Shown piece after piece: positions 10,096-53,614 of a DNA stretch of 64,000 nucleotides (positions are counted from its first letter, which is position 1; each line of letters starts with the position of its first letter). A program made the translations under genes and the position numbers. Source of the stretch: Candidatus Magasanikbacteria bacterium RIFCSPHIGHO2_01_FULL_41_23 (GTDB taxonomy: Bacteria > Patescibacteriota > Patescibacteriia > Magasanikbacterales > UBA922). The stretch spans positions 10,546-74,545 of the forward strand of contig MFPT01000021.1 of assembly GCA_001782805.1 (NCBI GenBank). Reading direction: 5' to 3'. Below the pieces are notes generated by a model. The model saw only the letters and a list, made by a program, of their open reading frames with translations, was not told where the DNA came from and made no database searches.

Positions 10096-11955
10096 ATGCC
10101 ATTTAAACCCATTGCCACCAATAAAAAAGGAATCAGTTCGGCAGCGCCGGACATTGAGAAAAAAAAACTGCAAAAAGAATTGATTACTTTGGAAGAAGAA
10201 CGGGTGTATCGCGAAGGCACGGTGGCCATTCGCGATTTGGTCGCGCCGTCCGCACTATCGGTTCAGTCCAATTTTGTGCAATTGGGCACGACTTTTTTGC
10301 GTACGATTTTTGTGATTACGTATCCGCGTTATATGTCAGTCGGCTGGAGTTCGCCGATTTTAAATTTAAATTTGACCATGGATTTGGCTATGTTTTTTTA
10401 TCCGGTCAATTCGGAAATTATTTTAAAACAGCTCAAGAAAAAAGTTGGCGCGCTGGAAGCGCAATTGTCCGGTGACGCGGAAAAAGGCGCGGCGCGTGAT
10501 CCGTTGCGCGAAACTGCTTTGCGCGATATTGAACAACTGCGCGATGATTTAACGCAAGGCGTGGAACATTTTTTTCAATTTGCTTTTTACGTTACGCTTT
10601 ACAGCCAAGACAAAAAAGAATTGGATAAAGTTACGGAAGACATTCAGAATATTTTTGGTTCCAAATTAATTTACAGCAAAAATGTTTTGTATCAGGCCGA
10701 ACAAGGTTTTACTTCAACGTTGCCGCTGGGGATTGATGAGTTGACGATTTCTTTTAACATGAATTCCTCGCCGATCGCGGCCTCGTTTCCGTTTATTTCC
10801 TCGGAATTAAGCAGTGATGATGGAATTTTGTATGGCATCAATCGCCATAATAACAGTTTAATTTTGTTTGATCGTTTTTCTTTGCAAAATGCCAATATGG
10901 TGGTTTTTGCCACTTCCGGAGCGGGAAAATCTTATGCTATTAAATTGGAAGTTTTGCGTAGTTTAATGATGGGAACTGACGTGATTGTGATTGATCCGGA
11001 AATGGAATATGAGCATTTGGCCGAGGCGGTTGGCGGAACTTATATCAGTATTTCTTTGGCTTCGGAAAGCAAAGTCAATCCGTTTGATTTGCCGCGTCCG
11101 GTTGGTCAGCAAATTTCCACCGAAGATATTATTCGCAGCGCAGTAATTACGATGAAAGGTTTGTTGCGGATTATGTTTGGCACACTGACGCCGCAGGAAG
11201 ATTCAATTTTGGATCGCGCGCTTTTGGAAACGTACGCGAAAAAAGACATTACAGCTACAGTTGATCTGACCACAGTCGAGCCGCCGATTATGCAGGATTT
11301 GCTGGATATTTTGGAAGGCATGACGGGCGCGGAAGTATTGGTTTTAAAATTGCGCAAATATACCGAAGGCACGTTTGCCGGATTATTCAATTCTCCGACC
11401 AATGTGAATGTGACCAATCAATTGGTTATTTTTAGCGTGCGTGATTTGGAAGATGAATTGCGGCCAATGGCGATTTATACGTTGGTGAATTATATTTGGA
11501 ATTTAGTTCGTTCCGAACAAAAACGGAGAATTTTGATTATTGATGAAGCGTGGTGGCTTATGAGTCACGAGGATTCGGCCAAATTCATTTACGCGCTCGT
11601 GAAGCGTTGTCGCAAATATTATTTGGGTGTGACGACCATTACCCAGGATGTGAATGATTTTTTACGTTCGCCATACGGACAGGCGATTGTAACCAATTCG
11701 GCTTTGCAACTTTTGCTCCGTCAATCACCCGCGGCCGTGGATATGATTCAACGCGTGTTTATGTTGACCGAAGGAGAAAAATATTTGCTTTTGGAAGGCG
11801 CGGTCGGTGAAGGCATATTTTTTGCCGGCAATAAACACGCGGCCATCAAAGTCGTGGCGTCTTATACCGAAGATCAACTCATCACGTCTGATCCCAAACA
11901 ATTATTGGAAATTGAAAAAGCCAAAAAAGAATTTGAAGAACAAATGGGAAAATAA
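10096..11955 (+). CDS. virB4: VirB4/TrbE/PrgJ-like T4SS ATPase, central and C-terminal ATPase domains
   Basis: Walker A VVFATSGAGKSYAIK and Walker B ILIIDEAWWLM. The architecture resembles VirB4/CagE/TraC. Together with the upstream ORF it gives ~848 aa, a typical VirB4 length. Confidence 0.75.
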   Translation: MPFKPIATNKKGISSAAPDIEKKKLQKELITLEEERVYREGTVAIRDLVAPSALSVQSNFVQLGTTFLRTIFVITYPRYMSVGWSSPILNLNLTMDLAMFFYPVNSEIILKQLKKKVGALEAQLSGDAEKGAARDPLRETALRDIEQLRDDLTQGVEHFFQFAFYVTLYSQDKKELDKVTEDIQNIFGSKLIYSKNVLYQAEQGFTSTLPLGIDELTISFNMNSSPIAASFPFISSELSSDDGILYGINRHNNSLILFDRFSLQNANMVVFATSGAGKSYAIKLEVLRSLMMGTDVIVIDPEMEYEHLAEAVGGTYISISLASESKVNPFDLPRPVGQQISTEDIIRSAVITMKGLLRIMFGTLTPQEDSILDRALLETYAKKDITATVDLTTVEPPIMQDLLDILEGMTGAEVLVLKLRKYTEGTFAGLFNSPTNVNVTNQLVIFSVRDLEDELRPMAIYTLVNYIWNLVRSEQKRRILIIDEAWWLMSHEDSAKFIYALVKRCRKYYLGVTTITQDVNDFLRSPYGQAIVTNSALQLLLRQSPAAVDMIQRVFMLTEGEKYLLLEGAVGEGIFFAGNKHAAIKVVASYTEDQLITSDPKQLLEIEKAKKEFEEQMGK

Positions 11956-11956
11956 T

Positions 11957-12150
11957 CCAATGCAACACCAAAACATCCACTATACCAATAAGCAAAATGG
12001 AGACGAATATACTTTTGCTGAAAGCTGAGTATATTGACTTGTTGAGAATGCATAATCCGTCAGACTATCAGTTGAACAAAAGGATATCGTTGAATTTTGC
12101 TTAAGACTTAGAATAAATAAAGTTTGATTAAGACTTAGAAAATGGAGTTT
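11957..12150 (+). repeat. Copy 1 of a ~200-nt dispersed intergenic repeat (second copy at 35643..35900)
   Basis: Near-identical blocks: AATGCAACACC..AATAAGCAAA.TGGAG.., GAAAGCTGAGTATA.TGACTTGTT.AGAATGCATAATCCGT.AGACTATCAGTTGAACAAAAGGATATCGT.GAATTTTG.TTAAGACTTAGAA..AATGGAGTTTG. There is an internal direct repeat TTAAGACTTAGAA. Confidence 0.7.
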
Positions 12151-12177
12151 GATTACGAGGGAATAAGATGCTATACT
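12149..12177 (+). promoter_or_regulatory. Putative sigma70-type promoter (TTGATT-17-TATACT) with the -10 only 8 nt from the ATG of the next gene (leaderless-like)
   Basis: Hexamers read directly from the sequence. Spacing 17 nt. ATG at 12186. Confidence 0.3.
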
Positions 12178-12185
12178 AAATACAT

Positions 12186-12788
12186 ATGATGACTCTCCGC
12201 AAACGCATTTTTATCATTAACATTATCGTTACGGCCATAATTTTGGCAATTTTTTTGTATTTGGTATATGGTCGCGAATCTGACACTAGTATAATAACTT
12301 CTGACAGCGAATCCGAAACATCGCCTACAGCGCCAAAAACCATTACCAATCAAGATAAAACCAACATAACAAAACCAGCCATCGCCAAACCGATTTTAGC
12401 TTTGCCGGCGTATTCCGAAGAATTATACGTCCGTCAACTAGCCAAAATTTTTGTGGAACGTTTTGCCAGTTATTCCACGCAAAATGATAATAATAATATC
12501 ACTGATTCACTTGATTTGGCGACAGTTAGTATGCAAACTTGGATGAAAACACAGCTAAAGCCGGGAAGTCGAGATTATGAAGGCGTGGTAACTCAAGTTC
12601 TGGCTTCTTCGGTTAAAGAAAAAACCGCTTCCAGCGCCACTGTTGACTTGCAAATTCAACAAAATTTTGAACAAAAAACCGCCACAGCCGTTGGCGCTAC
12701 GCAAAAAGAAATGCGTCAAAAAAAAGGAACGGTTAAATTGCTTAAAATTGGCGATCAATGGAAAATTGATGGTCTGTATTGGGAATAA
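12186..12788 (+). CDS. Hypothetical membrane-anchored protein (N-terminal TM helix; possible NTF2-like / VirB8-like periplasmic domain)
   Basis: 200-aa ORF. The N-terminus RKRIFIINIIVTAIILAIFLYLVY is a single TM helix. The remainder is soluble and ends in a beta-rich region. Size and topology resemble VirB8-type proteins, but there is no sequence-level proof. Confidence 0.45.
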   Translation: MMTLRKRIFIINIIVTAIILAIFLYLVYGRESDTSIITSDSESETSPTAPKTITNQDKTNITKPAIAKPILALPAYSEELYVRQLAKIFVERFASYSTQNDNNNITDSLDLATVSMQTWMKTQLKPGSRDYEGVVTQVLASSVKEKTASSATVDLQIQQNFEQKTATAVGATQKEMRQKKGTVKLLKIGDQWKIDGLYWE

Positions 12789-12804
12789 TAGTATGAAGGA
12801 GGGG

Positions 12805-13467
12805 ATGAAAAAACTAACTGATTTTTTACTGGATTGCGTATTTCCTTATTTTTGTTTACAATGCGGCGCATCTGATGTTTATTTTTGCTTTCTTTGTCGA
12901 CAAGCCGATTGGTTTAAAAATCCGACGGGAATTTTTGTGCATGGCAACGAGATTGATTCTTCCTTAACTCGAATCATCAGTTTGACTAAATATAATTCGG
13001 AAGTTGACGCGGCACGACTGATTGAGGATTTTAAATATGGTTTTATAAATCAGGCCAGTACGGAAATTAACGTCTGGCTAAAAAATACCGCGTGGTTAAA
13101 TAAAGAAATCGCAGATTGTGATTTAATAATTCCCGTGCCACTGCATCGCCGTCGTTTTGCCGAACGAGGATTTAATCAAGCGGAAATTATTGCCGGTTTT
13201 ATGAGTACGATTATACATCGTCCGATTGATTTTTTGTCTTTAATTCGTGCTAAATCAACCAAACAACAAGCCAAACTGGGTCGCGAAAAACGACTGAAGA
13301 ATGTGATTGACGCCTTTGTCTGCAAAAATAAAGAAAAAATTGTCGGCCAAAATATTTTGTTGGTTGACGATGTGTACACCACCGGCGCTACATTGGAGGA
13401 ATGCGCTAAAGTTTTATTGGCGACGGGCGCGAAAAATGTTTCCAGTTTTACTTTGGCTCACGGCTAA
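12805..13467 (+). CDS. comFC: ComF-family protein (ComFC-like phosphoribosyltransferase, competence-associated)
   Basis: N-terminal Cys-rich zinc-finger-like region (CLQCG..CFLCRQ). PRTase motif ILLVDDVYTTGATL near the C-terminus. GGAGG RBS 5 nt upstream of the ATG at 12805. The ORF track extends the frame upstream to 12643, which overlaps the previous gene. Confidence 0.7.
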   Translation: MKKLTDFLLDCVFPYFCLQCGASDVYFCFLCRQADWFKNPTGIFVHGNEIDSSLTRIISLTKYNSEVDAARLIEDFKYGFINQASTEINVWLKNTAWLNKEIADCDLIIPVPLHRRRFAERGFNQAEIIAGFMSTIIHRPIDFLSLIRAKSTKQQAKLGREKRLKNVIDAFVCKNKEKIVGQNILLVDDVYTTGATLEECAKVLLATGAKNVSSFTLAHG

Positions 13468-13485
13468 TAATTCCAGAAATAATAT

Positions 13486-14244
13486 TTAATTATATTGTGC
13501 CTCAACACTGCAATGTTTGCCATTGCCGATTATCACATGATCGATCAAATGAATTCCCATTATTTTGCCGGCGGCAATCAGTTGTTCGGTTATTTCTATA
13601 TCAGCCGCGCTGGGAGTAACAATTCCCGATGGATGATTGTGTACCAAAATTACAGCCGCGGCTCCGTATTCCACGGCTGGTTTAAATACTTCGCGCGGAT
13701 GGATCAAATTGGCATTGATTGTGCCAATCGATAAAACTTCATCATGAATTACGCGATAATGAGAATTTAAATAAATGCCGCGCAGATGTTCTTTGGGCAA
13801 GCGTTCCATATCGCGCGCATAATTAAATACATCTTTGGCTGTGCGCACCATTGTCAATCCGCTTTTATTTTTTTGGAAAAAGCGTCGACCAAGTTCACCA
13901 CATGCTACGATCTGCGCGGCTTTGTGAATGGGAATTTCCAAGTCTGTTGCCAGCGTGGCCGGATTGGTTTGGGCGGACAATGCTCGCTCGCCATATTCCT
14001 TGACTACGCGCGCTGACATCGCCAATACATCTTCTTTTGTAGAGCCGGTGTTAATAATTACTGCCAAAAGTTCTTGTACGGTCAAATTGCTTGGACCATA
14101 TTTGAGCAATTTTTCGCGCGGTTTGTCTTCGCTGGGCATGTCTTTGATGCGCAAAAAATACGTACGACCACTGGACAAAGCATCGGCTTCCAGCAAAATC
14201 AAACCGGTTTCGGGAATTGTATACGTATTCGTTTGAATATTCAT
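13486..14244 (-). CDS. radC: RadC-family (JAB/MPN domain) DNA repair protein
   Basis: HhH-type N-terminal region. JAMM-like motif VHNHPSG. C-terminus AADIEITEQL. Typical UPF0758/RadC architecture. Confidence 0.8.
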   Translation of the reverse strand: MNIQTNTYTIPETGLILLEADALSSGRTYFLRIKDMPSEDKPREKLLKYGPSNLTVQELLAVIINTGSTKEDVLAMSARVVKEYGERALSAQTNPATLATDLEIPIHKAAQIVACGELGRRFFQKNKSGLTMVRTAKDVFNYARDMERLPKEHLRGIYLNSHYRVIHDEVLSIGTINANLIHPREVFKPAVEYGAAAVILVHNHPSGIVTPSAADIEITEQLIAAGKIMGIHLIDHVIIGNGKHCSVEAQYN

Positions 14245-14378
14245 AAGGAAAAATTAAACATTACCAATGTAATCCTCAGTATCATATCACGAAAAAAAAT
14301 CTCCAGCAATGTGGTTTACCCTGAGCTTGTCGAAGGGAATTGTCCACATTTTTGGGGATAAATATCATTTTTCCATTA

Positions 14379-14408
14379 TTGACAAGAGTGATTTTTAATT
14401 ATAAAATA
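14379..14408 (+). promoter_or_regulatory. Putative sigma70-type promoter TTGACA-17-TAAAAT upstream of the 14417 ORF, in a divergent intergenic region with radC
   Basis: Perfect -35 TTGACA at 14379, 17-nt spacer, TAAAAT -10. ATG at 14417. Confidence 0.4.
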
Positions 14409-14416
14409 AAAATACT

Positions 14417-14722
14417 ATGAAACAAATTTGGGATAAATTAAAAGAACATGACAAGCGATTTGACCAGATTGATGGTCAAATTGATTTTTTGGCCATTAAA
14501 GTGTTGGAACATGACGATAGGTTGCAAAGAATTGAAGAAAATATGGCAACCAAAGCCGATTTGCGGACAATTTCCGATACTCTTGATAAATTAGTCGGAT
14601 TAGCCCTCAAAAAAGATCAGGAAGTAACTTTTTTGACCCATAGTGTAAAAGGGTTATGGAATAAATTTGAAGAGTATGATCTAGATATAAAGCAAATGAA
14701 ATTATTGTTAGAATTAGGTTAA
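14417..14722 (+). CDS. Hypothetical small coiled-coil protein
   Basis: 101-aa ORF with heptad-like charged/hydrophobic periodicity. No known motif. Confidence 0.4.
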   Translation: MKQIWDKLKEHDKRFDQIDGQIDFLAIKVLEHDDRLQRIEENMATKADLRTISDTLDKLVGLALKKDQEVTFLTHSVKGLWNKFEEYDLDIKQMKLLLELG

Positions 14723-14783
14723 GAGAAATAAAAAAATAATAGGTTAAATAAATTAACACCTTGGATGGTGTTAATTTTATGGC

Positions 14784-14873
14784 TGGCGGAGAGGGAGGGA
14801 TTCGAACCCTCGAGGGATTTGACTCCCTGCAGCTTTAGCAAAGCTGTACGATCGGCCACTCTGACACCTCTCC
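14784..14873 (-). tRNA. tRNA-Ser (anticodon GCU), class II long variable arm, CCA encoded
   Basis: The reverse complement folds as GGAGAGG..T-arm GGTTCGAATCC..CCTCTCC-G-CCA. Anticodon loop UUGCUAA. Long variable arm and G73 discriminator. Confidence 0.8.
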
Positions 14874-14930
14874 ATTTTTTATTTTTTTTGCTTGCTCTGA
14901 GCGATCCCGACATAGTCGGGAGAGTCGAAG

Positions 14931-15019
14931 GGCGGAGAGATAGAGATTCGAACTCTAGAGGCTCTTGCGAGCCCGGCAGTTTAGTAAACTGCTGCCTTAA
15001 ACCACTCGGCCATCTCTCC
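14931..15019 (-). tRNA. Class II (Ser-type) tRNA with atypical anticodon loop UUACUAA (apparent anticodon ACU); CCA not encoded
   Basis: GGAGAGA-U-GGCCGAGUGGUUUAAGGC-A-GCAGU-UUACUAA-ACUGC-long arm-UAGAG-UUCGAAU-CUCUA-UCUCUCC-G. The body closely parallels the adjacent tRNA-Ser(UGA). Its loop differs from the tRNA-Ser(GCU) loop only by A at position 34. Confidence 0.55.
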
Positions 15020-15094
15020 ATAAATTCTGATATTGTGGGCTTGCCCTGAGCGAGCGACTTGTGGTGAGCGGAGTCGAAACCAAGCGAGTCGAAG

Positions 15095-15183
15095 GGCGGA
15101 GAGAGTGAGATTCGAACTCACGGAGGACTTGCATCCTCAACAGTTTTCAAGACTGTCGCCTTAAACCACTCAGCCATCTCTCC
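15095..15183 (-). tRNA. tRNA-Ser (anticodon UGA), class II
   Basis: GGAGAGA-U-GGCUGAGUGGUUUAAGGC-G-ACAGU-CUUGAAA-ACUGU-long arm-GUGAG-UUCGAAU-CUCAC-UCUCUCC-G. Confidence 0.8.
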
Positions 15184-15282
15184 AGAACTTTATCCTATAA
15201 ACAGAAAAACTATAGCAAAATTAAGTATTTTTCGCAAGTGTATTGTGCCGTGATTTTTGCCATGATATACTCAAGTTGAACT

Positions 15283-19342: not shown

Positions 19343-19394
19343 AAAAAAGCCTTCTTCGACACGGGTTTATCCCGAGCTTGTCGAGGGAGGCTTT
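19343..19394 (-). terminator. Rho-independent terminator downstream of clpP (minus strand)
   Basis: On the minus strand: AAAAGCCTCCCTCGACAAGCTCGGGATAAACCCGTGTCGAAGAAGGC followed by TTTTTTT. The hairpin contains a copy of the dispersed GTTTA.CC.GAGCTTGTCGA.GG motif. Confidence 0.45.
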
Positions 19395-19397
19395 TGT

Positions 19398-29543: not shown

Positions 29544-29858
29544 ATGGAGGTTCAGTTTTTTGATAAAAAAATAGAAGAATTTATTGATCATTTAGATAAT
29601 ATTGTTAATCCGAAAGTATTTCGGGTAATTGCTCTTTTGGAAGAATTTGGACCAAGTCTAGGAATGCCGCAAAGTAAGAAAATTGGTCAGCGACTGTTTG
29701 AGCTCAGGATACTTGGTAAACAGCATATTCGTATTATATATACTTTTCATCGAGATTCGGCGATCTTGTTGCATGGATTTATTAAAAAATCAGAAAAAAT
29801 TCCTCTGAAAGAAATTTGCCTTGCCAAAGCTAAATTATCGGTTCTTGACAGAAGATAA
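29544..29858 (+). CDS. higB: Type II TA toxin, HigB-like (RelE/ParE superfamily, Gp49/DUF891-type)
   Basis: 104 aa. The pattern LFELRILGKQHIRIIYTFHRDSAILLHGFIKKSEKIPLKEI matches the HigB/Gp49 C-terminal signature. It precedes an HTH antitoxin, which is the HigBA gene order. Confidence 0.7.
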   Translation: MEVQFFDKKIEEFIDHLDNIVNPKVFRVIALLEEFGPSLGMPQSKKIGQRLFELRILGKQHIRIIYTFHRDSAILLHGFIKKSEKIPLKEICLAKAKLSVLDRR

Positions 29859-29880
29859 CATATACGTTATATTAATCTAT

Positions 29881-30156
29881 ATGAAAAACTTTTCAACTTT
29901 TAGGGAGGAACAGTTCAAAAAAAAACCAGGTCTTCGGGAGGCCTATGAAGCCCTTGGGCCGGAATATGAGTTAATTGCTCAGCTTATTCGGAAGCGTCTT
30001 AATAAAGGCCTAACTCAATCAGCCTTGGCCAAAAAAATTGGAACAAAACAGTCGGCGATTGCTCGTTTGGAGTCAGGAAACTATAACGCTTCGATTGCTT
30101 TCTTGGAAAAAGTTGCCAAGGCGCTGGATGCAAAGCTGGTCGTTTCAATTTTATAG
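29881..30156 (+). CDS. higA: HTH XRE-family antitoxin (HigA-like)
   Basis: Helix-turn-helix LTQSALAKKIGTKQSAIARLESGNYNASIAFLEKVAKAL. The ORF track extends the frame upstream to 29821, overlapping the toxin. The ATG at 29881 follows the toxin stop. Confidence 0.7.
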   Translation: MKNFSTFREEQFKKKPGLREAYEALGPEYELIAQLIRKRLNKGLTQSALAKKIGTKQSAIARLESGNYNASIAFLEKVAKALDAKLVVSIL

Positions 30157-33030: not shown

Positions 33031-34464
33031 ATGAATTCCATTCCGATCGCTTTAACCTACGATGATGTTTTAATTGTGCCGCGACGTTCCGGTCTTAATT
33101 CACGCAGTGAAGCCGTGACAACAACGCGGTTAACCAAGAAAATAAATTTGCATATTCCATTGGTCAGCGCGAATATGGACACGGTGACTGAATCGCAAAT
33201 GGCGATTGCGTTGGCGCGATTGGGCGGGATTGGAATTTTGCATCGCTTTATGACGATTGAAGAAAATATCGAAGAAGTAAAACGAGTTAAGCGCGCGCAA
33301 AATTTTGTGGTTCGCGATCCATACAGCATTGATCCGAATAAAACAATTGGTCAAGCCAAAGAATTTATTGCCAAATGCGGTGTAACGGGTTTGGTAGTGG
33401 CGAATGATGATGGACGTTTGCACGGGATTCTTTCGCGTCGAGATATGATGTTTGCGGAAAATGACCACGCACTTGTTTCGGAAATTATGACGCCGCGTGC
33501 CAAATTAATTGTGGGTGTTCCATCAACCACATTTGAAGAAGCCAAAAATATTTTTGCGCAAAATAAAATAGAAAAATTGCCGCTTGTGGATGAAGACAAT
33601 AAAATTATTGGTTTAATTACCAGTGATGATATTCGGTTGAGGATTGATTATCCATTGGCTAATACTGATGAGAAAGGCAATCTTTTGGTGGGCGCTTCAA
33701 TTGGCGTGAAAGGGGATTATATTGAGCGCGCGCAAGAATTAATTAAAGCCGGAGTGGATGTGCTGGTGATTGATATTGCGCACGGACACTCGGATTTAAT
33801 GTTTGACGCGATTAAAAATGTTCGCGCGGCTTGCACAGATGTGCAATTGATTGCAGGTAATATCGCGACAAGCGGAGCGGCGCAAGAATTATGTGAAGCC
33901 GGAGTTGATGGTTTAAAAGTGGGAGTGGGTCCGGGAACAATTTGCATTACTCGTTTGGTGACCGGATGTGGCGTGCCGCAATTATCCGCGGTGATGAATG
34001 TGGCCGCGACCGCACAAAAATATAATGTTCCGGTAATTGCGGACGGAGGAATTCAAAAATCCGGTGATATTGTAAAAGCGATTGGTGCGGGTGCGGATAC
34101 GGTTATGCTGGGCGGATCTTTGGCTGGAACACATGAAAGTCCCGGTCTGATAATTAATCGCGATGGCAAGAAATATAAAGTTTGCCGCGGTAGCGCCAGT
34201 TTTGCGATTGCTGAACGTAGGCAAAAAGTGGGGCAAGAAAAAAAGGAAATGAATGAAGTTACGCCAGAAGGCGTGGAAGCAGTTGTGCCGTATAAAGGGT
34301 ATTTGGCGGAAATTGTCGGTCAATTTATTGGTGGTTTAAAATCAGGGATGAGCTATACCAATTCGCGAACGATTGGTGAATTGCAAAAAAATTGTGATTT
34401 TGTGCGGATTACGAACGCGGGTTTGCGCGAAAGCGGGCCGCATGATTTGCAGGATGTGCGCTAG
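33031..34464 (+). CDS. guaB: Inosine-5'-monophosphate dehydrogenase (IMPDH) with CBS pair
   Basis: TIM-barrel IMPDH motifs IDIAHGHS and GVGPGTICITRLVTGCGVPQLSAV (catalytic Cys loop). Two CBS domains in the middle. Confidence 0.9.
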   Translation: MNSIPIALTYDDVLIVPRRSGLNSRSEAVTTTRLTKKINLHIPLVSANMDTVTESQMAIALARLGGIGILHRFMTIEENIEEVKRVKRAQNFVVRDPYSIDPNKTIGQAKEFIAKCGVTGLVVANDDGRLHGILSRRDMMFAENDHALVSEIMTPRAKLIVGVPSTTFEEAKNIFAQNKIEKLPLVDEDNKIIGLITSDDIRLRIDYPLANTDEKGNLLVGASIGVKGDYIERAQELIKAGVDVLVIDIAHGHSDLMFDAIKNVRAACTDVQLIAGNIATSGAAQELCEAGVDGLKVGVGPGTICITRLVTGCGVPQLSAVMNVAATAQKYNVPVIADGGIQKSGDIVKAIGAGADTVMLGGSLAGTHESPGLIINRDGKKYKVCRGSASFAIAERRQKVGQEKKEMNEVTPEGVEAVVPYKGYLAEIVGQFIGGLKSGMSYTNSRTIGELQKNCDFVRITNAGLRESGPHDLQDVR

Positions 34465-34527
34465 AACTTGAATAAACTAGAAGCTGAATAACTATTTAAG
34501 ACTAAAAACAATTAATTTTTTTGGTGA

Positions 34528-34561
34528 GGGGGCTCCGACTTCATGTCGGAGCCCCCTTTTT
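34528..34561 (+). terminator. Strong rho-independent terminator after guaB (12-bp GC stem plus T5)
   Basis: GGGGGCTCCGAC-TTCAT-GTCGGAGCCCCC followed by TTTTT. Confidence 0.7.
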
Positions 34562-34580
34562 GTTCTTCCTCCTTTCTTCG

Positions 34581-34820
34581 CTAGGCGAAGTTCCCGTAGT
34601 AGCTCATGACGTGACCGAAGCCTCCGCGTGGCGAAGCGCGTCGGTGATGCTCGTTGTCGTCAGATCCCCCCTTCTTCTTAGGGGGATCCACGATCGGCGA
34701 CCGGTTTGTGGACAGGCTCCGCGGCGGACGGTAGGGGGTTCCATCGGCCGAGGGGATGTCCTCGGCACGTCGGAGGGGGTTTCCCTTGTCATCCAGCGTC
34801 GCGGCACGAAATCTTTCCAT
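34581..34820 (-). CDS. Hypothetical small basic protein encoded in the GC-rich island
   Basis: 80-aa ORF on the minus strand (MERFRAATLDDKGNPLRR...KKKGGSDDNEHHRRASPRGGFGHVMSYYGNFA). GC content far above the genome background. The coding call is uncertain. Confidence 0.25.
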   Translation of the reverse strand: MERFRAATLDDKGNPLRRAEDIPSADGTPYRPPRSLSTNRSPIVDPPKKKGGSDDNEHHRRASPRGGFGHVMSYYGNFA

Positions 34821-35033
34821 GGTCAATGATCCTTGTGTCCCGACTTCGTCGGGACGGTTTGAGATGAAGAAGATTATAAATAATTGTGATGCTTTTGTCA
34901 ATAATTTTAGGCTAAAAAATTTTAAAAAAATGTTCGGTTTGACTTTTTTGCTTTTTTATTTTATTCTTTGAACAGATTGTTTTAATTTGGCTGAACAATG
35001 AGGGGTTGTTTGGTCAACTAAGGGGTTTTTTCA

Positions 35034-35231
35034 ATGAAGGTTTTGATGGTCACCCTGACTACCAAGAACAGCCGTGGAGAGGACATCCATTTCTCGATCT
35101 CGAAGGAGGGCGCGCGGGAGGCCGGAATCCTCCCTGATTCTCGATCCTGGGATCGTGCCCAGGGTGTCTCGGCGGGAAACCGCCAGTACATGAAGCGCCT
35201 CGTTCGTCGACTCGACGAGATCGGATCGTAA
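35034..35231 (+). CDS. Hypothetical small protein in the second GC-rich segment
   Basis: 65-aa ORF (MKVLMVTLTTKNSRGEDIHF...). GC-rich. A terminator follows at 35378-35405. The coding call is uncertain. Confidence 0.25.
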   Translation: MKVLMVTLTTKNSRGEDIHFSISKEGAREAGILPDSRSWDRAQGVSAGNRQYMKRLVRRLDEIGS

Positions 35232-35377
35232 GCGATCCGAACCAACGCCGTTGATTCGCCGCCACTCGCGGATCCGGCACGATCGTTCTTCATCAAGTAG
35301 CCCACCAGTTTCTGTCCCACCTTTGTTCCTTCCTCGGGCTCAGACTTCACGTCCGAGCCCTCCCACCAAAATTAAAA

Positions 35378-35405
35378 CTCTCCGAGATTGTCGGAGGGTT
35401 TTTTT
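35378..35405 (+). terminator. Rho-independent terminator
   Basis: CTCTCCGA-GATTG-TCGGAGGG hairpin followed by TTTTTTT. Confidence 0.55.
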
Positions 35406-35642
35406 ATGACAATAAATACATCAAGGAAATCAATTTAAATCGAATCAATTTAAGTCGACTTAAAATAAATCAAATCAACATGAATTTCAGTAATAGGTAA
35501 TTTTCTTTTCAGTAAAACTCGCTATTCTTCTCCTCTCCTCGTCTCTATCCTTATTGATATATTAAATCTACTTTAACCAAGTAAGCGGAAAGAAAGCTCG
35601 TACACATTACTAAAAAGAAAATTACCTACTACTGAAATTACC

Positions 35643-35900
35643 CCAATGCAACACCGAAAAATTTAATATACCTAATAAGCAAACTGGAGTGAGATCTTTT
35701 TCTCGATGCCCGAGCCTGTTTACCCTGAGCTTGTCGAAGGGTCGAGGGTCGAGAAAAACGGTCTCACGAAGTTTGCTTAAGACTTAGAAAGCTGAGTATA
35801 ATGACTTGTTAAGAATGCATAATCCGTTAGACTATCAGTTGAACAAAAGGATATCGTCGAATTTTGTTTAAGACTTAGAAAATGGAGTTTGCTTATGAGC
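35643..35900 (+). repeat. Copy 2 of the ~200-nt dispersed repeat (see 11957..12150), carrying a ~65-nt internal insertion of the short GC-rich repeat family
   Basis: Blocks align with copy 1 at ~85-90% identity. Extra segment ..GCCCGAGCCTGTTTACCCTGAGCTTGTCGAAGGGTCGAGGGTCGAG.. is inserted between the first two blocks. Confidence 0.7.
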
Positions 35901-36089
35901 AAACAAAGCATGAATTTTGATTACAATTTGGCATATAAAAAATATAAAAGTCCAGTGTTTACCGGACTTTTATATGACACGTAGAAGTTTTGCCAATGAA
36001 GCACTGGCTCACTACCCTTTAATGTAAATTATATCAAGATTTATTATTTTGTCAAATAAAAAACACAACGAGAAGTTGTGATTTTTAGG

Positions 36090-36166
36090 TGGTGGACCTG
36101 ACGGGAATCGAACCCGTTCTACTACGTGTCAAGGGTAGTGTGCTCAACCAGATACACCACAGGCCC
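36090..36166 (-). tRNA. tRNA with short variable arm, CCA encoded, anticodon loop CUUGACA (apparent anticodon UGA); isotype uncertain
   Basis: GGGCCUG-UG-GUGU-AUCUGGUUGA-GCAC-A-CUACC-CUUGACA-CGUAG-UAGA-ACGGG-UUCGAUU-CCCGU-CAGGUCC-A-CCA. The stem has a C31.C39 mismatch, position 37 is C, and there is one acceptor-stem G.U pair. Confidence 0.55.
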
Positions 36167-36255
36167 TAGGTCCACCATGTACTACCATAACATAAACCAC
36201 ATTAAGAAAGTCTTAAGTTTTTGTAGTTATCCACAAAGTATGCACAAAAACAATA

Positions 36256-36285
36256 AAACTCCTTTTTGAGGAGCTTTATTGTACG
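36256..36285 (-). terminator. Rho-independent terminator downstream of radA (minus strand)
   Basis: On the minus strand: AAAGCTCCTCAAAAAGGAGTTTTATTGTTTTTG. Confidence 0.45.
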
Positions 36286-36357
36286 AATATAGAATTGTTA
36301 CTGTAGTGCAGGTTGATAATATCCTTATAAACTATAATATAGTAAGAAAATTATTTG

Positions 36358-37743
36358 TCAAGTATGTGTAATCAACTCCGCGATATTTTTTACGCCGATT
36401 ATTTTTAATCCCGATTTATCGTAATTTTTCCCTTCTGATAATTTGGGATTGGGATTTATTTCGACAGTCGTGGAATTTTTAGTAGAACTCGCGGCCGTAA
36501 TCACGCGACGCATCCCAAGATTGGCGGATTCTTTAATTCTTTTTTCCGCTTGGGAAACTCTGCGCACTTCGCCGCCCAAACCAACTTCACCAAAAACTAC
36601 CAGATCCGCGCCCAATGCCTTATCTTTATATGAACTCGCAATTGCCAAACAAACCGTCAAATCCGCGGCCGGCTCGCCGGCATTAATTCCCCCGACAACA
36701 TTAATGTGAATGTCATATTGTCCGAGCGACAAACCCGCGCGTTTTTCCAGAACCGCAACCAAAACGTGAAGTCGATTCAAATCAAAACCACTGGCTTTGC
36801 GCACGGGATAGCCAAAGACAGTTTTGTTGACGAGCGCTTGAATTTCCACGAGCATGGGACGTGTTCCTTCCATTAAACAAGTCAAAATACTGCCGGACAC
36901 GGCTTCACCCCGATCCGCAATAAACGCGGCCGAGGAGTTTTTTACTTCCACCAAACCATGTTCTTGCATAGCAAAAATCCCCACTTCATCCGTGGCGCCA
37001 AACCGATTTTTTACCGTGCGCAATAAACGATAACTGTGATGGCGTTCACCTTCCAAATAAAGAACCGTGTCCACCAAATGTTCCAAAGTTTTGGGTCCGG
37101 CCACAGTGCCTTCTTTGGTGACATGCCCAATAATAACAATCGCAGTATTCGTTGATTTGGCAGTTTCCAAAAGTTTTACAGTCGCGGCGCGGACTTGATT
37201 GGGATTGCCGGCTTCGCCGAGCACATCATGGGAAGTAATTGTTTGGATAGAATCAATAACTGCGAGGGTTGGTTTTTCCGCGGTTATGGTCGCGCAGATT
37301 GTTTCCACGTTGGTTTCATTGCCTAAACGAAAATTTATTTTTTTTGTAAACAAACGATCCGCGCGCAATTTTATTTGTCCGACTGATTCTTCGCCGGATA
37401 AATATAAAGTAGGGGAGATGAGTGTGGCGAGTTGTAATGCCAGTGTTGATTTGCCAATTCCCGGTTCGCCACCAAGCAAAATTAAACTGCCCGGCACAAT
37501 TCCACCGCCGAGTACGCGGTCAAGTTCAGACAGGCCAGTCGCGATACGCGGCGTATTTTCGCCTTTAATTTCATCCAGAGAAACAGTTTTTGCAGCCGCG
37601 GTTTTATTTTTTTCTGTTTCAGATTTTTTGACCGCGGATTCGCTAATCGTTCCCCATTGCCCGCATTCCAAACAGCGCCCAATCCATTTTTGGTATTGCG
37701 CGTCGCAGTGGGAACAGAGGAAGATGGTGGTGGATTTGGGCAT
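36358..37743 (-). CDS. radA: DNA repair protein RadA/Sms
   Basis: N-terminal C4 zinc finger CSHCDAQYQKWIGRCLECGQW. Walker A GGEPGIGKSTL. KNRFG motif. C-terminal Lon-protease-like domain. The ORF track starts at 37797, but the conserved N-terminus begins at MPKSTTIF (37743). Confidence 0.85.
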   Translation of the reverse strand: MPKSTTIFLCSHCDAQYQKWIGRCLECGQWGTISESAVKKSETEKNKTAAAKTVSLDEIKGENTPRIATGLSELDRVLGGGIVPGSLILLGGEPGIGKSTLALQLATLISPTLYLSGEESVGQIKLRADRLFTKKINFRLGNETNVETICATITAEKPTLAVIDSIQTITSHDVLGEAGNPNQVRAATVKLLETAKSTNTAIVIIGHVTKEGTVAGPKTLEHLVDTVLYLEGERHHSYRLLRTVKNRFGATDEVGIFAMQEHGLVEVKNSSAAFIADRGEAVSGSILTCLMEGTRPMLVEIQALVNKTVFGYPVRKASGFDLNRLHVLVAVLEKRAGLSLGQYDIHINVVGGINAGEPAADLTVCLAIASSYKDKALGADLVVFGEVGLGGEVRRVSQAEKRIKESANLGMRRVITAASSTKNSTTVEINPNPKLSEGKNYDKSGLKIIGVKNIAELITHT

Positions 37744-41989: not shown

Positions 41990-43726
41990 TTAGACGGCGG
42001 ATTGTTGTTTAGAACGTTGTTGTTTTAATGTAGTCAGCAGTGATTGATTTATTATTCTAAACCGTTGTTGAGCCAATTTGGCAATTTGCTGGCTGATATT
42101 TTTTAATTTTTTTCGTTTTTCATCACGTTCTTTTTTCTTTTTTTCCATTTTTTTATCAAGATCTGCAATTTTTAGGTCTACGGCTTTCCTGAGAACTTGG
42201 GGGATATTGGAAGCAGTCCAAACCATGGGCGCAATCGGGACAATGAAGAGAAAAATAATCGTCGCGGCCAGAATTGCGGCTAAAACTTTTATGAGAATTT
42301 CAATTGCCAATAATGTCCAGCTGGCAATGGTTAATGCTTTGTGTTCTCGTTCCAAGGGCTTAAGAAATTCATCGATGGTTTTGATTTCTTTTTGTAATTT
42401 TTTTTTGTCTTGGTTAAGTTGTTCGGCTTTTTTGTCTATCTCAGCGATTAACTGTTTGTTCCGTCGTTCATTAAACTTTTGCATTAGTATACCACGTTGT
42501 TGGAGATTTTGTCCGCTCGTTTGTTGTTGAGTCGCATTTTGGTTTGGATCTGTTGTAGTTTGGTTTTGTGGCTGGCCTGATTGGGAATTTTGATTTTGTC
42601 CCGACGCGTTGGGATTAGTTTGTCCTGATGCTTGTTCTTGATTCTGTCCATTTTGTCCGCGTGGTTGGGGATGGCCGGCATCATCTGTCTTAACCAGTGG
42701 TTCGCCAAGCGAAGCTTGATCGTCTTGGTTGGCAGTCATGGGATTTTTTTCCGGTTCCGGTGGTTTTTCTTCGGGAGTTGGTTCTTCCGGCTTTTTTTCT
42801 CCCTCCGATTCTCTTTCTTTTGCTTTTTCCGGCGCGTCTTCTTTTGATTTGGCGTCGTCCTCTTCTTTTTTTCTCTCTTCATCAGCTGACGGATTTGATT
42901 TGTCTGATTCAGTTTTTCCACCTTCAGGAGTTGGTGCTCCTTGTTTTGTTTTTTCCTGTTCTCTTTCTGGTTGTTTTTCTTCCGGTGTTTCTCCAGGATT
43001 TTCTGCATTAGTTGGAGTTTCAGTCGGAGAAGGAGTTGCTTCCTCTTCTGGTTTTGTTTCGGCTTGTTCAGAATTTGGTGTTGATTCGGCATTTTTATTC
43101 GCGGAACGATTATCGGCTGCTTTATCCGCGCCTTGTTGCATTCGATCTTTTTTTTGTGGAGCCCCTCGACTTCCCTCGACTCCGCTCGGGACAAGTTGCT
43201 CGGGGTAAACTGGTTCGGCTTGATCCGGTTCAACATCAGAATCATCAGGTATTTCTTGGTCATCATTGGCCGCTTCATCTGTTGACAGTGAGTCTGCCGA
43301 ATCTGTTGGATCAGCGCCAAAAGAATTAATTGCATCCGTTGGATTTATGCCACTATCAGGCATTTCCACATTATCATTGGCCGCGCTGTTTATGTTAAAT
43401 TCATCAGCCAATAATTCTTCTGCTTCTTTTTCCGCAATTGTTTCCGCAACCGCATTTGCCACTTCTTGATCCAGCATTTCTTTGGTTTCCATTTCTAAAT
43501 TAGTGTTTGCCGCCACTTGATCCACCATTTGTCGGCCAATTTGGGCAATCAAATCAGTTACTTTAGTCAGTCCTGATCCGCGTATTTCACTGGAGCTGAC
43601 GGTTTTTTTTAAAATATTTTCCGCTTGATTATTTTGGCCGCTCAAATAATCGCCGACTCCTTGGGAAATTGGATCGGGTTTTGCTGGATCTGGTTTACGT
43701 TGGGGTAAAGCCACAGCCGAATTCAA
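41990..43726 (-). CDS. Hypothetical acidic low-complexity protein with C-terminal coiled-coil and TM helix
   Basis: 578-aa ORF with long E/K/P/T/Q-rich disordered stretches. TM helix LAIEILIKVLAAILAATIIFLFIV near the C-terminus. Carries an in-frame copy of the short GC-rich repeat (peptide ..LVPSGVEGSRG..). Confidence 0.5.
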   Translation of the reverse strand: MNSAVALPQRKPDPAKPDPISQGVGDYLSGQNNQAENILKKTVSSSEIRGSGLTKVTDLIAQIGRQMVDQVAANTNLEMETKEMLDQEVANAVAETIAEKEAEELLADEFNINSAANDNVEMPDSGINPTDAINSFGADPTDSADSLSTDEAANDDQEIPDDSDVEPDQAEPVYPEQLVPSGVEGSRGAPQKKDRMQQGADKAADNRSANKNAESTPNSEQAETKPEEEATPSPTETPTNAENPGETPEEKQPEREQEKTKQGAPTPEGGKTESDKSNPSADEERKKEEDDAKSKEDAPEKAKERESEGEKKPEEPTPEEKPPEPEKNPMTANQDDQASLGEPLVKTDDAGHPQPRGQNGQNQEQASGQTNPNASGQNQNSQSGQPQNQTTTDPNQNATQQQTSGQNLQQRGILMQKFNERRNKQLIAEIDKKAEQLNQDKKKLQKEIKTIDEFLKPLEREHKALTIASWTLLAIEILIKVLAAILAATIIFLFIVPIAPMVWTASNIPQVLRKAVDLKIADLDKKMEKKKKERDEKRKKLKNISQQIAKLAQQRFRIINQSLLTTLKQQRSKQQSAV

Positions 43727-52555: not shown

Positions 52556-53614
52556 ATGTCCAAAGATTTACAAAAATTACATAATGAGAGTTTGGTGCAC
52601 ATTGCGACTGCGCTTGATTTGGCACAATTGGAAGCGGTTGAATTATCGTTATTTTCGCGCCAAAACGGTCGACTGACTATGCTCATGAAAGAAATAGCTA
52701 CTGTTTTGCCGGCGGAAAAAAAAGCGTATGGTGAATCTTGCAACACAGTAAAAGAAGAATTAATCGGTTCGATTGCCAAGCGTCGTGAAGAATTGACGAA
52801 TGTGCGCTGGAAAACAATTGCCAATGATGAGCGGATTGATCCCTCGGCTCCGCTCGGGACAAGTTCTTCGTCCATGACAAGAGCACAAAAAAAGAATTAC
52901 GGTTCGCTTCATCCCATAAGTCGCGTGCAATACGATTTGGAGGATTTGTTTACTTCCATGGGGTTTATGGTGCTGGATGGTCCGGAATTGGAAAGCGATT
53001 ATTATAATTTTGAAGCGCTTAATATTCCGGCCGATCATCCGGCGCGCGACATGCATGATACTTTTTATCTTAAAAATAATCCGAGTTGGGTAATGCGCAC
53101 GCATACCTCGCCGGTTCAAGTCAGAGCTATGGAAAAATATGGTGCGCCTTTACGCGCGATTGTTCCCGGACGTTGTTTCCGGAATGAAGCAACTGATCCG
53201 CGCCACGAGCATACGCTATATCAATTGGAAGGATTGGTGATTGATCGCGGTATTAATTTTGCGCATTTGAAAGGCATTATTGCCACAGTGGCCAAACATT
53301 TGTATGGAGGGGAAACCAAAGTTCGATTTCTGCCAAAATTTTATCCTTTTGTTGAGCCGGGAGTGCGCGGCGAAGTTACGTGTTTTTTGTGTCATGGCAC
53401 TGGCTGTCGCGTGTGCAAAAATACGGGTTGGCTGGAAATTTTTGGCGCGGGCATGATGCATCCGAATGTTCTCCGTGCTGGGAAAATTGATCCGGAAAAA
53501 TATTCCGGCTTGGCGTTTGGACTTGGTTTGTCGCGTTTGGTAATGCTTAAATACGCGATTCCGGATGCGCGCTATGCACTGGGCGGAGATTTGCGATTTT
53601 TAAATCAGTTTTAA
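52556..53614 (+). CDS. pheS: Phenylalanine--tRNA ligase alpha subunit
   Basis: Class II aaRS motifs: motif 2 ..FRNEATDPRHEHTLYQLEG.. and motif 3 ..GLAFGLGLSRLVML... Contains an in-frame copy of the short GC-rich repeat (peptide DPSAPLGTSSS). Confidence 0.9.
   Translation: MSKDLQKLHNESLVHIATALDLAQLEAVELSLFSRQNGRLTMLMKEIATVLPAEKKAYGESCNTVKEELIGSIAKRREELTNVRWKTIANDERIDPSAPLGTSSSSMTRAQKKNYGSLHPISRVQYDLEDLFTSMGFMVLDGPELESDYYNFEALNIPADHPARDMHDTFYLKNNPSWVMRTHTSPVQVRAMEKYGAPLRAIVPGRCFRNEATDPRHEHTLYQLEGLVIDRGINFAHLKGIIATVAKHLYGGETKVRFLPKFYPFVEPGVRGEVTCFLCHGTGCRVCKNTGWLEIFGAGMMHPNVLRAGKIDPEKYSGLAFGLGLSRLVMLKYAIPDARYALGGDLRFLNQF

Follow-up and report, generated by a model that had tools for sequence, protein, structure and literature searches.

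The window, which is the entire stretch of 64,000 nucleotides analysed here, contains two copies of a short repeat that recurs elsewhere within one lineage of Candidatus Magasanikbacteria. We consider it probable that these copies represent a mobile structured repeat: a non-autonomous family of the same kind as the ERIC, Correia, BOX and RPE elements, kept uniform by spread and gene conversion, transcribed together with its neighbours and mobilised in trans. The family is new and previously undescribed; the kind of element, selfish or semi-selfish, is familiar. The element is present in many copies, differs in presence between orthologous sites, forms a hairpin with compensated base changes, shows a strand and orientation bias and is modular in its composition.

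Location of the two copies in the window

With a G + C content of approximately 41%, the window forms a compact genome segment. Its proteins are recorded as those of Candidatus Magasanikbacteria bacterium RIFCSPHIGHO2_01_FULL_41_23, a Candidate Phyla Radiation organism from the Rifle aquifer. A repeat search and a MAFFT alignment placed the repeat pair at positions 11957-12175 and 35643-35905, in agreement with the initial annotation of two look-alike stretches. In the whole-window repeat search, a 94-nt core (12020-12113 versus 35787-35880) was 95% identical, a 39-nt 5' block (11948-11986 versus 35634-35672) 79% and a 47-nt 3' block (12120-12166 versus 35860-35906) 85%. The internal direct repeat reported earlier was found as the 13-mer TTAAGACTTAGAA, twice in each copy (12101-12113 and 12128-12140; 35777-35789 and 35868-35880). 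For the sequence TTAAGACTT, 6 occurrences were counted in the window, where 0.56 would be expected. A covariance-model scan of the 64-kb window with the filters off detected the two copies only.

The boundaries of the copies needed some revision. Copy 1 does start at 11957, but its end is not at 12150; three 27-nt tandem units recognised by TRF carry it to about 12171-12175. What had been described as an insertion of ~65 nt in copy 2 is instead a replacement, in which ~98 nt (35690-35787) substitute for 18 nt of copy 1. The GGAG-N7-ATG after copy 2 was read correctly (GGAG at 35884-35887, ATG at 35895-35897), but the 29-codon ORF that it precedes runs from 35895 to 35984 and not from 35897 to 35986. 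This ORF overlaps a promoter-plus-terminator unit on the opposite strand and lies outside the repeat family.

Copy 1 is located between a gene for a VirB4/TraC-like ATPase (10096-11955) and a gene for a 200-aa membrane protein (12186-12788), both on the + strand, and its 5' block begins 1 nt past the stop codon of the former (11953-11955). Copy 2 is located in a 1.9-kb gene-poor gap, after the IMP dehydrogenase gene and before a minus-strand tRNA gene and radA. It is preceded by a terminator, and no gene on the sense strand follows it.

Copy number and insertion sites

A 22-mer from the core was found at 13 loci in JGI metagenome contigs, 4 of which were on one 198-kb contig. Searches with nhmmer and the covariance model added a diverged copy (L011:2109-2234) and the copy L026:3-123. 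Combining alignment, nhmmer and the covariance model, the element is present in at least 16 distinct gene contexts, on Candidatus Magasanikbacteria contigs from Rifle groundwater. When all copies were aligned with 260 nt of flanking sequence, the likeness ended at the element and the flanking genes differed. This clearly contradicts a simple segmental duplication with identical flanks and no further copies, which the initial annotation had named as the finding that would speak against a dispersed repeat. An MraY-like protein on the 198-kb contig is named Candidatus Magasanikbacteria bacterium RIFCSPHIGHO2_01_..., as are the proteins of the window; on the basis of this common name, at least a good part of the copies should reside in one genome. 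The density is roughly one copy per 30-50 kb. A single population, or a small number of closely related ones, may be the source of all copies. The core 22-mer had no match in the species-representative genome collection, where a further pattern scan gave one chance match, and a search of viral contigs for copies or modules gave nothing or chance matches.

All copies found are intergenic. They are often situated within operons, even between overlapping genes, and at two sites relatives without the element were available for comparison. At the first site, that of copy 1, the distance from the VirB4 stop codon to the gene for the 200-aa protein is 230 nt in the window and 6-11 nt in three relatives (L029, L032 and L034), whereas a fourth (L030) has a spacer of 60 nt; the VirB4-like proteins of these relatives are 84-92% identical. 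In the closer relative ERZ27297570 (VirB4 97% identical) the spacer measures 132 nt. At the second site, the genes for the MraY-like protein and a DUF192 protein overlap by 13-14 nt in relatives, whereas in L026 they are separated by a gap of 434 nt, which holds an AT-rich leader, module A (see below) and the element. These empty orthologous sites indicate that the element was inserted into operons in this lineage. No target-site duplication was visible at copy 1 or in L026, where the empty-site relatives (63-92% protein identity) are too diverged for the junctions to be read base by base. Neither the immediate surroundings of the copies nor the gene tables of the loci fetched (~430 kb of related DNA) contained a transposase or recombinase gene.

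Organisation of the element

From 5' to 3', the element consists of a semi-conserved block of ~32 nt, an imperfect hairpin of 115 nt and 2-4 tandem units of 27 nt. The features of both copies in the window are listed in Table 1.

Table 1. Features of the two copies of the repeat and their surroundings (positions in the window)
Feature	Position	Strand	Basis or remark
Copy 1, 5' block (CCAATGCAACACC...TATACCAA)	11957-11988	+	Semi-conserved in 14/16 copies; nhmmer model position 1 = 11957
Copy 1, 115-nt imperfect hairpin	11989-12103	+	RNAalifold consensus; covariance model 158 bits
Copy 1, helix P0	11989-11998 with 12094-12103	+	Followed by GGA/GA internal loop
Copy 1, helix P1	12002-12017 with 12077-12091	+	Bulged A, A.G mismatch
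Copy 1, helix P2	12023-12028 with 12068-12073	+	
Copy 1, helix P3	12035-12038 with 12059-12062	+	20-nt terminal loop including invariant GAAUGCAUAAUCC
Copy 1, variable patch TATATTGACTTGTTGAG	12030-12046	+	Internal loop, 5' strand of P3, start of terminal loop
Copy 1, three tandem ~27-nt units (GA-AKTTTGMTT-AAGASTTAG-...)	12092-12171	+	TRF
Copy 1, promoter-like TTGATT-N17-TATACT	12149-12177	+	Consensus scan, 9/12 matches, with TG
Copy 2, AT-rich leader (AAGGAAATCAA...AAATCAACATG)	35414-35482	+	BLASTN matches in L003, L026, L027 and L008
Copy 2, module A (157 nt, 33-nt inverted arms)	35483-35639	+	Repeat search
Copy 2, 5' block	35643-35676	+	79% identical to 11948-11986
Copy 2, GC-type hairpin unit	35677-35787	+	-49.9 kcal/mol, z -5.9
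Copy 2, shortened canonical unit	35787-35869	+	95% identical to 12020-12113
Copy 2, 27-nt units, with small hairpin GTTTGCTTATGAGCAAAC at the end (35887-35904)	35859-35905	+	85% identical to 12120-12166

TRF reported a period of 27 with 2.3 copies over 12096-12155 for copy 1, and the units number 2-4 at the other loci as well. The 3' strand of P0 belongs to the first unit, and this 3' half of the hairpin foot recurs in each of the later ones. The foot itself reads AAGCAAAMU-GGA ... GA-AKUUUGCUU, or as DNA AAGCAAAMTGGA...GAAKTTTGCTT, and it encloses one of three distal contents: the common P1-P3, the diverged P1 of L011 or a GC-rich hairpin.

The last of these is the GC-type unit, which in copy 2 forms a complete palindromic hairpin with a foot of its own in the place of the canonical 5' arm. 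It is composed of the foot AAGCAAACT (35677-35685), GGA, a near-perfect GC-rich hairpin, GA, the second foot strand AGTTTGCTT (35770-35778) and a tail (TTAAGACTTAG / AAGACTTAG), and its centre has a 24-nt GC-rich stretch in common with 14314-14337. The unit is also present inside L007 and L009, and alone at L005:6609-6722, where it stands head-to-head with another copy. The canonical unit that follows it in copy 2 retains P2, P3, the loop and the 3' strands of P1 and P0, and lacks the 5' partner strand, as a result of which copy 2 scores only 70.7 bits against the covariance model. As the GC-type unit replaces the 5' arm in three copies (window copy 2, L007 and L009), these have no P0/P1, and they score ~70 bits compared to ~155 bits.

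Two further modules are optional. The arms of module A (35483-35515 and 35607-35639) are 94% complementary. The module is located directly 5' of the element in 5 contexts, in a fixed orientation, and was never encountered without the element in the ~430 kb of related DNA examined. The AT-rich leader precedes it in the same relative place at other loci also. Module B is located upstream of the element in 4 contexts, likewise in a fixed orientation, and was found once with the 5' block but without the hairpin (L010:11342-11522).

Conserved hairpin and folding strand

A covariance and secondary-structure analysis, as proposed in the initial annotation, demonstrated a conserved hairpin. The RNAalifold consensus from 12 copies comprises four stacked helices (P0-P3) with 34 pairs, 8 of which show double changes; the covariance model covers these 34 pairs in 126 positions. 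P0 and P1 together form a long, near-continuous helix of 24 pairs. By pair counting, 99.5% of the cells were paired and none of 500 shuffles was as good, whereas controls in which the partners were slid by 1-3 columns had 32-47% paired cells and no double changes. The covariation comes mainly from a single copy, the diverged L011:2109-2234, which supplies 7 of the 8 double changes. Its ~20 substitutions are all in P0/P1; the bulged A and the internal loop are retained, and the 59-nt interior is identical to that of the common type.

The minimum free energy fold of copy 1 is the consensus fold, with -32.7 kcal/mol (z -4.2) on the + strand versus -25.9 kcal/mol on the - strand. For the GC-type unit the values are -49.9 kcal/mol on the + strand and -39.5 kcal/mol on the other strand. 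In the alignment, G.U pairs are present at 4 columns and A.C at none. Given the G.U pairs without A.C and the better fold energy, the folding strand is the strand shown, and this is the sense strand of the neighbouring genes at most loci. The covariation of an inverted repeat fits RNA, single-stranded DNA and paired transposase-binding sites alike.

Judged from the sequence, the GGA/GA loop could consist of two tandem G.A pairs and one bulged G. Pairing of AUGCA in the 5' block with UGCAU in the loop, as a pseudoknot, was considered and rejected: variants of the 5' block break it uncompensated, while the loop is invariant. The likeness between GUAUAUU and loop B of the hairpin ribozyme was judged coincidental, as the strand arrangement differs and the Rfam model gave no match.

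Variation between copies

Among the common-type copies the stems are almost invariant, and nearly all differences are found in the 17-nt patch TATATTGACTTACTGAG, of which there are eight variants. No unpaired nucleotide of the hairpin interior varies, and this includes the copy with the diverged stems. One identical patch is common to seven copies in different contexts. Contig L023 represents the same locus as window positions 12012-15194, with 3 differences in 3183 nt. All three fall within the variable patch and match the variant found in the paralogous copy of L012. From these sequences, the simplest explanation of the L023 patch would be short-tract gene conversion between copies. Gene conversion would also explain the standard interior of the diverged-stem copy in L011. 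An invariant interior next to a single variable patch of 17 nt is more suggestive of functional constraint, or of strong homogenisation, than of the neutral decay of a selfish element. As a guide for flanking DNA the patch was discarded, the longest matches being ~6.9 nt for cognate and ~7.0 nt for non-cognate flanks.

Proposed spread of the element

The following course of events would account for these results. Small, modular, non-autonomous interspersed repeats would have spread within one Candidatus Magasanikbacteria lineage, and the copies would have entered short spacers between genes, for the most part in the sense orientation. An enzyme acting in trans would recognise the foot of the hairpin, either as single-stranded DNA or as inverted repeats, and recent spread together with gene conversion would uphold the similarity of the copies. 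As neither a promoter nor a terminator is conserved in the element, its transcription most likely takes place within the neighbouring mRNA, in which it would be expected to fold into the long hairpin. An effect on the processing or stability of this mRNA may follow.

Orientation and alternative explanations

A co-oriented start codon was present 7-51 nt downstream in 13 of the 16 copies (one-sided binomial p ~0.01), and a co-oriented gene upstream in 12 of 14. The remaining 3 of the 16 copies were antisense to, or convergent with, their neighbours. The downstream genes encode the 200-aa membrane protein, DnaG, RecJ, GlyA, GalU, acetolactate synthase, a glycosyltransferase, a sugar kinase and a DUF192 protein. 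As their functions are unrelated, a pathway-specific leader or riboswitch is excluded. The orientation bias may stem from the replication strand or from transcription, and the GC skew is mixed in this respect: it is positive on the element strand at most loci (among them L025, with the element antisense to the genes on both sides) and negative in L007 and L009.

The main rival explanation, which is compatible with a mobile repeat, is that the element has been exapted as a cis-acting RNA. It would then be a processing site of the RNase III type, a block to exonucleases that makes the stability of one cistron independent of its neighbour's, or a platform for proteins through the GGA/GA foot and the loop. 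The predominant sense orientation, the G.U pairs and fold energies in favour of the sense strand, and the long helix of P0 and P1 are all consistent with such a role. The same applies to the loop nucleotides, which remained invariant although the stems diverged in one copy, and to the insertions inside operons whose downstream genes still need expression. On the other hand, the antisense or convergent copies and the position of copy 2 behind a terminator do not fit, the three copies without the 5' arm cannot form the hairpin, and close relatives have the same operons without the element. As gene conversion can also account for the invariant interior, we regard a function of this kind as possible but rather unlikely.

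More doubtful is a second proposal, in which the hairpin would be the RNA or single-strand DNA part of an undescribed protein-dependent system of the Candidate Phyla Radiation. The G.A foot and the invariant loop would act as the scaffold, with swappable distal modules, a 17-nt patch that differs even between strains identical in other respects, and alternative half-foot registers, for mobilisation or regulation unlike that of MITE, REP/RAYT or IS200/IS605 elements.

The initial annotation had also suggested a mobile promoter or 5'-UTR cassette, with an outward promoter driving the downstream gene. In favour of this, the distance from the end of most copies to a co-oriented start codon is 7-51 nt, and the promoter-like site of copy 1 ends 9 nt before the ATG. 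In addition, the extra unit in copy 2 creates TTGCTT-N18-TATAAT (35773-35802), and the core hexamer TATNNT varies only at the least critical positions. However, a -35/-10 pair at a conserved position was absent from 15 full copies with 260 nt upstream of each, modules A and B included, and the canonical copies have no -35-like sequence 16-18 nt upstream of TATNNT. Canonical promoters are in use in this organism, as is seen from the 12/12 matches at 36055-36028 and 34901-34873 (opposite strand, copy 2 region), so a real promoter of the element should be recognisable. A sigma-70-type site was present only in copy 1 and in one other copy, with the -10 in the non-conserved tail in both, and we consider the cassette improbable. 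For the site in front of gene 12186, an origin as a junction promoter subsequent to the insertion is possible, its -35 being provided by the last unit.

The annotation had further listed an ncRNA gene as an option, and it was right insofar as the secondary structure is conserved. The copies could be paralogous free-standing sRNA genes, with the 17-nt variable patch, set in an otherwise invariant scaffold, as the seed for target pairing. Against this, the element has no promoter, copy 1 has no intrinsic terminator, one patch is common to seven copies in different contexts, and the complementarity of the patches to their own flanks is no better than to the flanks of other copies. Free-standing sRNA genes are accordingly very unlikely. 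Rfam (release 15) gave only tRNA matches in the whole window at gathering thresholds, and weak chance matches, far below gathering scores, in 11800-12300 and 34400-36400 at E-values up to 10.

There is even less reason to assume a small protein gene, although the frame from ATG (11997) to TAA (12102-12104), which encodes METNILLLKAEYIDLLRMHNPSDYQLNKRISLNFA (35 aa), is open in all canonical copies and has been called as a gene three times in public data. CTG replaces ATG in 4 of the 16 copies, the stop position reads TAA, TAC or TAT so that the C-terminus varies, and the insertion-type copies contain an in-frame TAG. The changes in the patch are mostly non-synonymous (~6 to 3), those in the diverged copy follow base-pairing and not codons, and among 5.8 billion proteins only 3 were found, all of them from known copies of the element.

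Finally, two direct copies 23.7 kb apart with tRNA genes near both could recall the attL/attR repeats of an integrated element, or a simple segmental duplication, but this is almost certainly wrong, because the interval between them holds ordinary housekeeping genes (ComF, RadC, HSP20, ClpP, TopA, MurE-like, DprA, Pth, Der, LytR, RecG and IMPDH) and no integrase, so that the copies bound no island, and at least 14 further copies are found elsewhere with other flanks.

Comparison with known repeats

A MITE had been among the options in the initial annotation, and MITE-like features are evident in the many short, non-coding copies dispersed between unrelated flanks and in the presence/absence polymorphism at orthologous sites. 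Terminal inverted repeats were not found. The inverted repeat of P0 and P1 is internal, with the 32-nt 5' block on one side and the 2-4 units on the other.

ERIC or IRU elements are 127-bp imperfect palindromes of enterobacteria with a TA target. They resemble the Magasanikbacteria repeat in being imperfect palindromes of ~120 nt that are intergenic and without a transposase of their own, with size variants due to internal insertions at fixed sites, orientation-dependent behaviour and possible short open frames. They are usually co-transcribed with the neighbouring genes, as the Magasanikbacteria repeat most likely is. The two do not resemble each other in sequence, and a TA target was not seen in the Magasanikbacteria repeat, which in addition has the 5' block, the 3' tandem units and the optional modules A and B, and whose host is a Candidate Phyla Radiation bacterium of reduced genome size. 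ERIC and IRU elements are the subject of the reviews PMC3184786 and PMC2759123.

In Neisseria, the Correia elements (NEMIS/CREE) are bounded by terminal inverted repeats of 26 bp and show a TA duplication, and their hairpins are substrates of RNase III. They too are small and non-autonomous, lie near gene starts and form a hairpin when co-transcribed. Their junction promoters, formed with flanking DNA, possibly have a counterpart at copy 1. In contrast to these elements, the Magasanikbacteria repeat has an internal inverted repeat, no visible duplication and no conserved outward promoter.

BOX elements of Streptococcus pneumoniae are built as boxA - boxB(n) - boxC. Like the Magasanikbacteria repeat they are intergenic and modular, with a variable number of tandem units and complementary modules that form a stem-loop. 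In BOX, the tandem units are positioned between the complementary modules, whereas those of the Magasanikbacteria repeat come after the hairpin and repeat its 3' foot. The RPEs of Rickettsia are likewise selfish hairpin repeats that spare the neighbouring genes in the small, gene-dense genome of a host-dependent bacterium, but they are often in frame within coding sequences, unlike the intergenic copies found here.

Elements derived from IS200/IS605 and REP/RAYT systems are mobilised as a single strand by HUH transposases. They show a strand bias and have neither terminal inverted repeats nor a target duplication; the Magasanikbacteria repeat likewise has no terminal inverted repeats and no visible duplication, and in both the recognised feature would be an irregular hairpin (bulge, mismatch, fixed foot). 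These elements have a hairpin at each end and a defined target of 4-5 nt, whereas the present element has one central hairpin and its left flanks have no tetranucleotide in common. A Y1 transposase gene was not seen in the fetched loci (~430 kb). The strand bias is suggestive only, the GC skew being opposite in L007 and L009.

Implications for Candidate Phyla Radiation genomes

Genomes of the Candidate Phyla Radiation are ~1 Mb in size and are regarded as streamlined, with little mobile DNA. Small interspersed repeats have hardly been documented in these bacteria. In the open-access literature searched, neither repeats of this kind nor non-coding RNA were found to be reported for Patescibacteria or Magasanikbacteria, and a broader search on repeats returned only general papers on bacterial repeats. 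The family described here shows that a structured repeat can still spread in such genomes, and that overlapping, translationally coupled genes can even be separated by it and remain intact. If the sense-strand hairpin affects mRNA processing, the element would be among the few regulatory RNA elements known in the radiation.

The repeat also has practical consequences. It leads to spurious small ORF calls, and it breaks metagenome assemblies: contigs L023 and L026 both end inside the element. It can be used as a strain-level marker for the Rifle population.

Partial copies of the element and assembly breaks

Two metagenome contigs, L023 (at position 1) and L026 (at position 3), end in the interior of the element. 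Metagenome assemblies are broken by the element, and its copy numbers based on metagenome-assembled genomes will therefore be too low.

In contig L010, the minus strand of positions 11342-11522 carries module B, one of the two recurrent upstream modules, followed by the 5' block of the element, which ends at ...GAATAAGTAAAT. An epimerase gene follows directly; both the hairpin and the 27-nt units are missing. Either this locus arose by deletion, or it is a sign that the hairpin part inserted separately into the 5' block.

Other repeats in the window

A 101-nt repeat (positions 13-113 and 36147-36247, 77% identity) covers the beginnings of two minus-strand tRNA genes together with the DNA upstream of them. 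On the strand of the tRNAs it includes CTTAAGACTTTCTTAA, with the core TTAAGACTT that the 27-nt units of the element also have. This repeat is a unit standing alone, or else a shared site for a protein or a promoter.

The short GC-rich repeat of the initial annotation is probably the one listed at five sites in the table below. It lies in the loop of two different hairpins, at 14305-14350 and in the copy 2 insertion; the occurrences at 43172 and 52840 lie within long predicted ORFs without a Pfam domain.

Features of the window discussed in the text
Feature	Position	Strand	Remark
Short GC-rich repeat	14314-14337, 19360-19395, 35715-35745, 43172-43215 (-), 52840-52870 (-)		roughly GTTTAYCCYGAGCTTGTCGARGG
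Serine tRNA genes	14784-15184	minus	three in tandem, ~150 nt apart
Gp49/HigB-like toxin and HTH (HigA-like) antitoxin genes	29544-30156
Island, left border	34526-34558		IMPDH terminator
Island, unit 1	34901-34873 (promoter)	minus	perfect promoter, then ORF of ~80 codons
Island, unit 2	35034-35231	plus	65-codon ORF
Island, right border	35380-35396	plus	terminator
tRNA-like gene	36090-36166	minus	77 nt; tRNA-Ser(UGA) by ARAGORN

Putative small transcription units around copy 2

Beyond copy 2, the minus strand of 35932-36055 is a candidate small RNA gene. It starts with a perfect sigma-70-type promoter (TTGACA-N16-TATAAT with TG, 36055-36028), and ~85 nt downstream lies a 15-pair hairpin with a T-run (35975-35942). 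The predicted transcript contains two hairpins (computed fold, -29.2 kcal/mol, z -4.6) and has no match in Rfam. The unit overlaps, in antisense, the 29-codon ORF proposed in the initial annotation.

Positions 34560-35400 form a visibly GC-rich island, the genome around it being AT-rich, with two small divergent units inside. It matches neither Pfam nor Rfam, and looks like foreign DNA or structured RNA.

tRNA genes and toxin-antitoxin pair

Despite the ARAGORN call, the tRNA-like gene does not have the long variable arm that serine tRNAs possess. Pairing in its acceptor stem is poor as drawn and improves if the 5' end is moved a few bases upstream; Rfam gave a tRNA match of 49.9 bits and a tmRNA match below threshold. 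ARAGORN assigns to one of the three tandem serine tRNA genes the anticodon ACT, which is unusual among bacteria.

The toxin and antitoxin genes overlap by 38 nt and have housekeeping genes all around.
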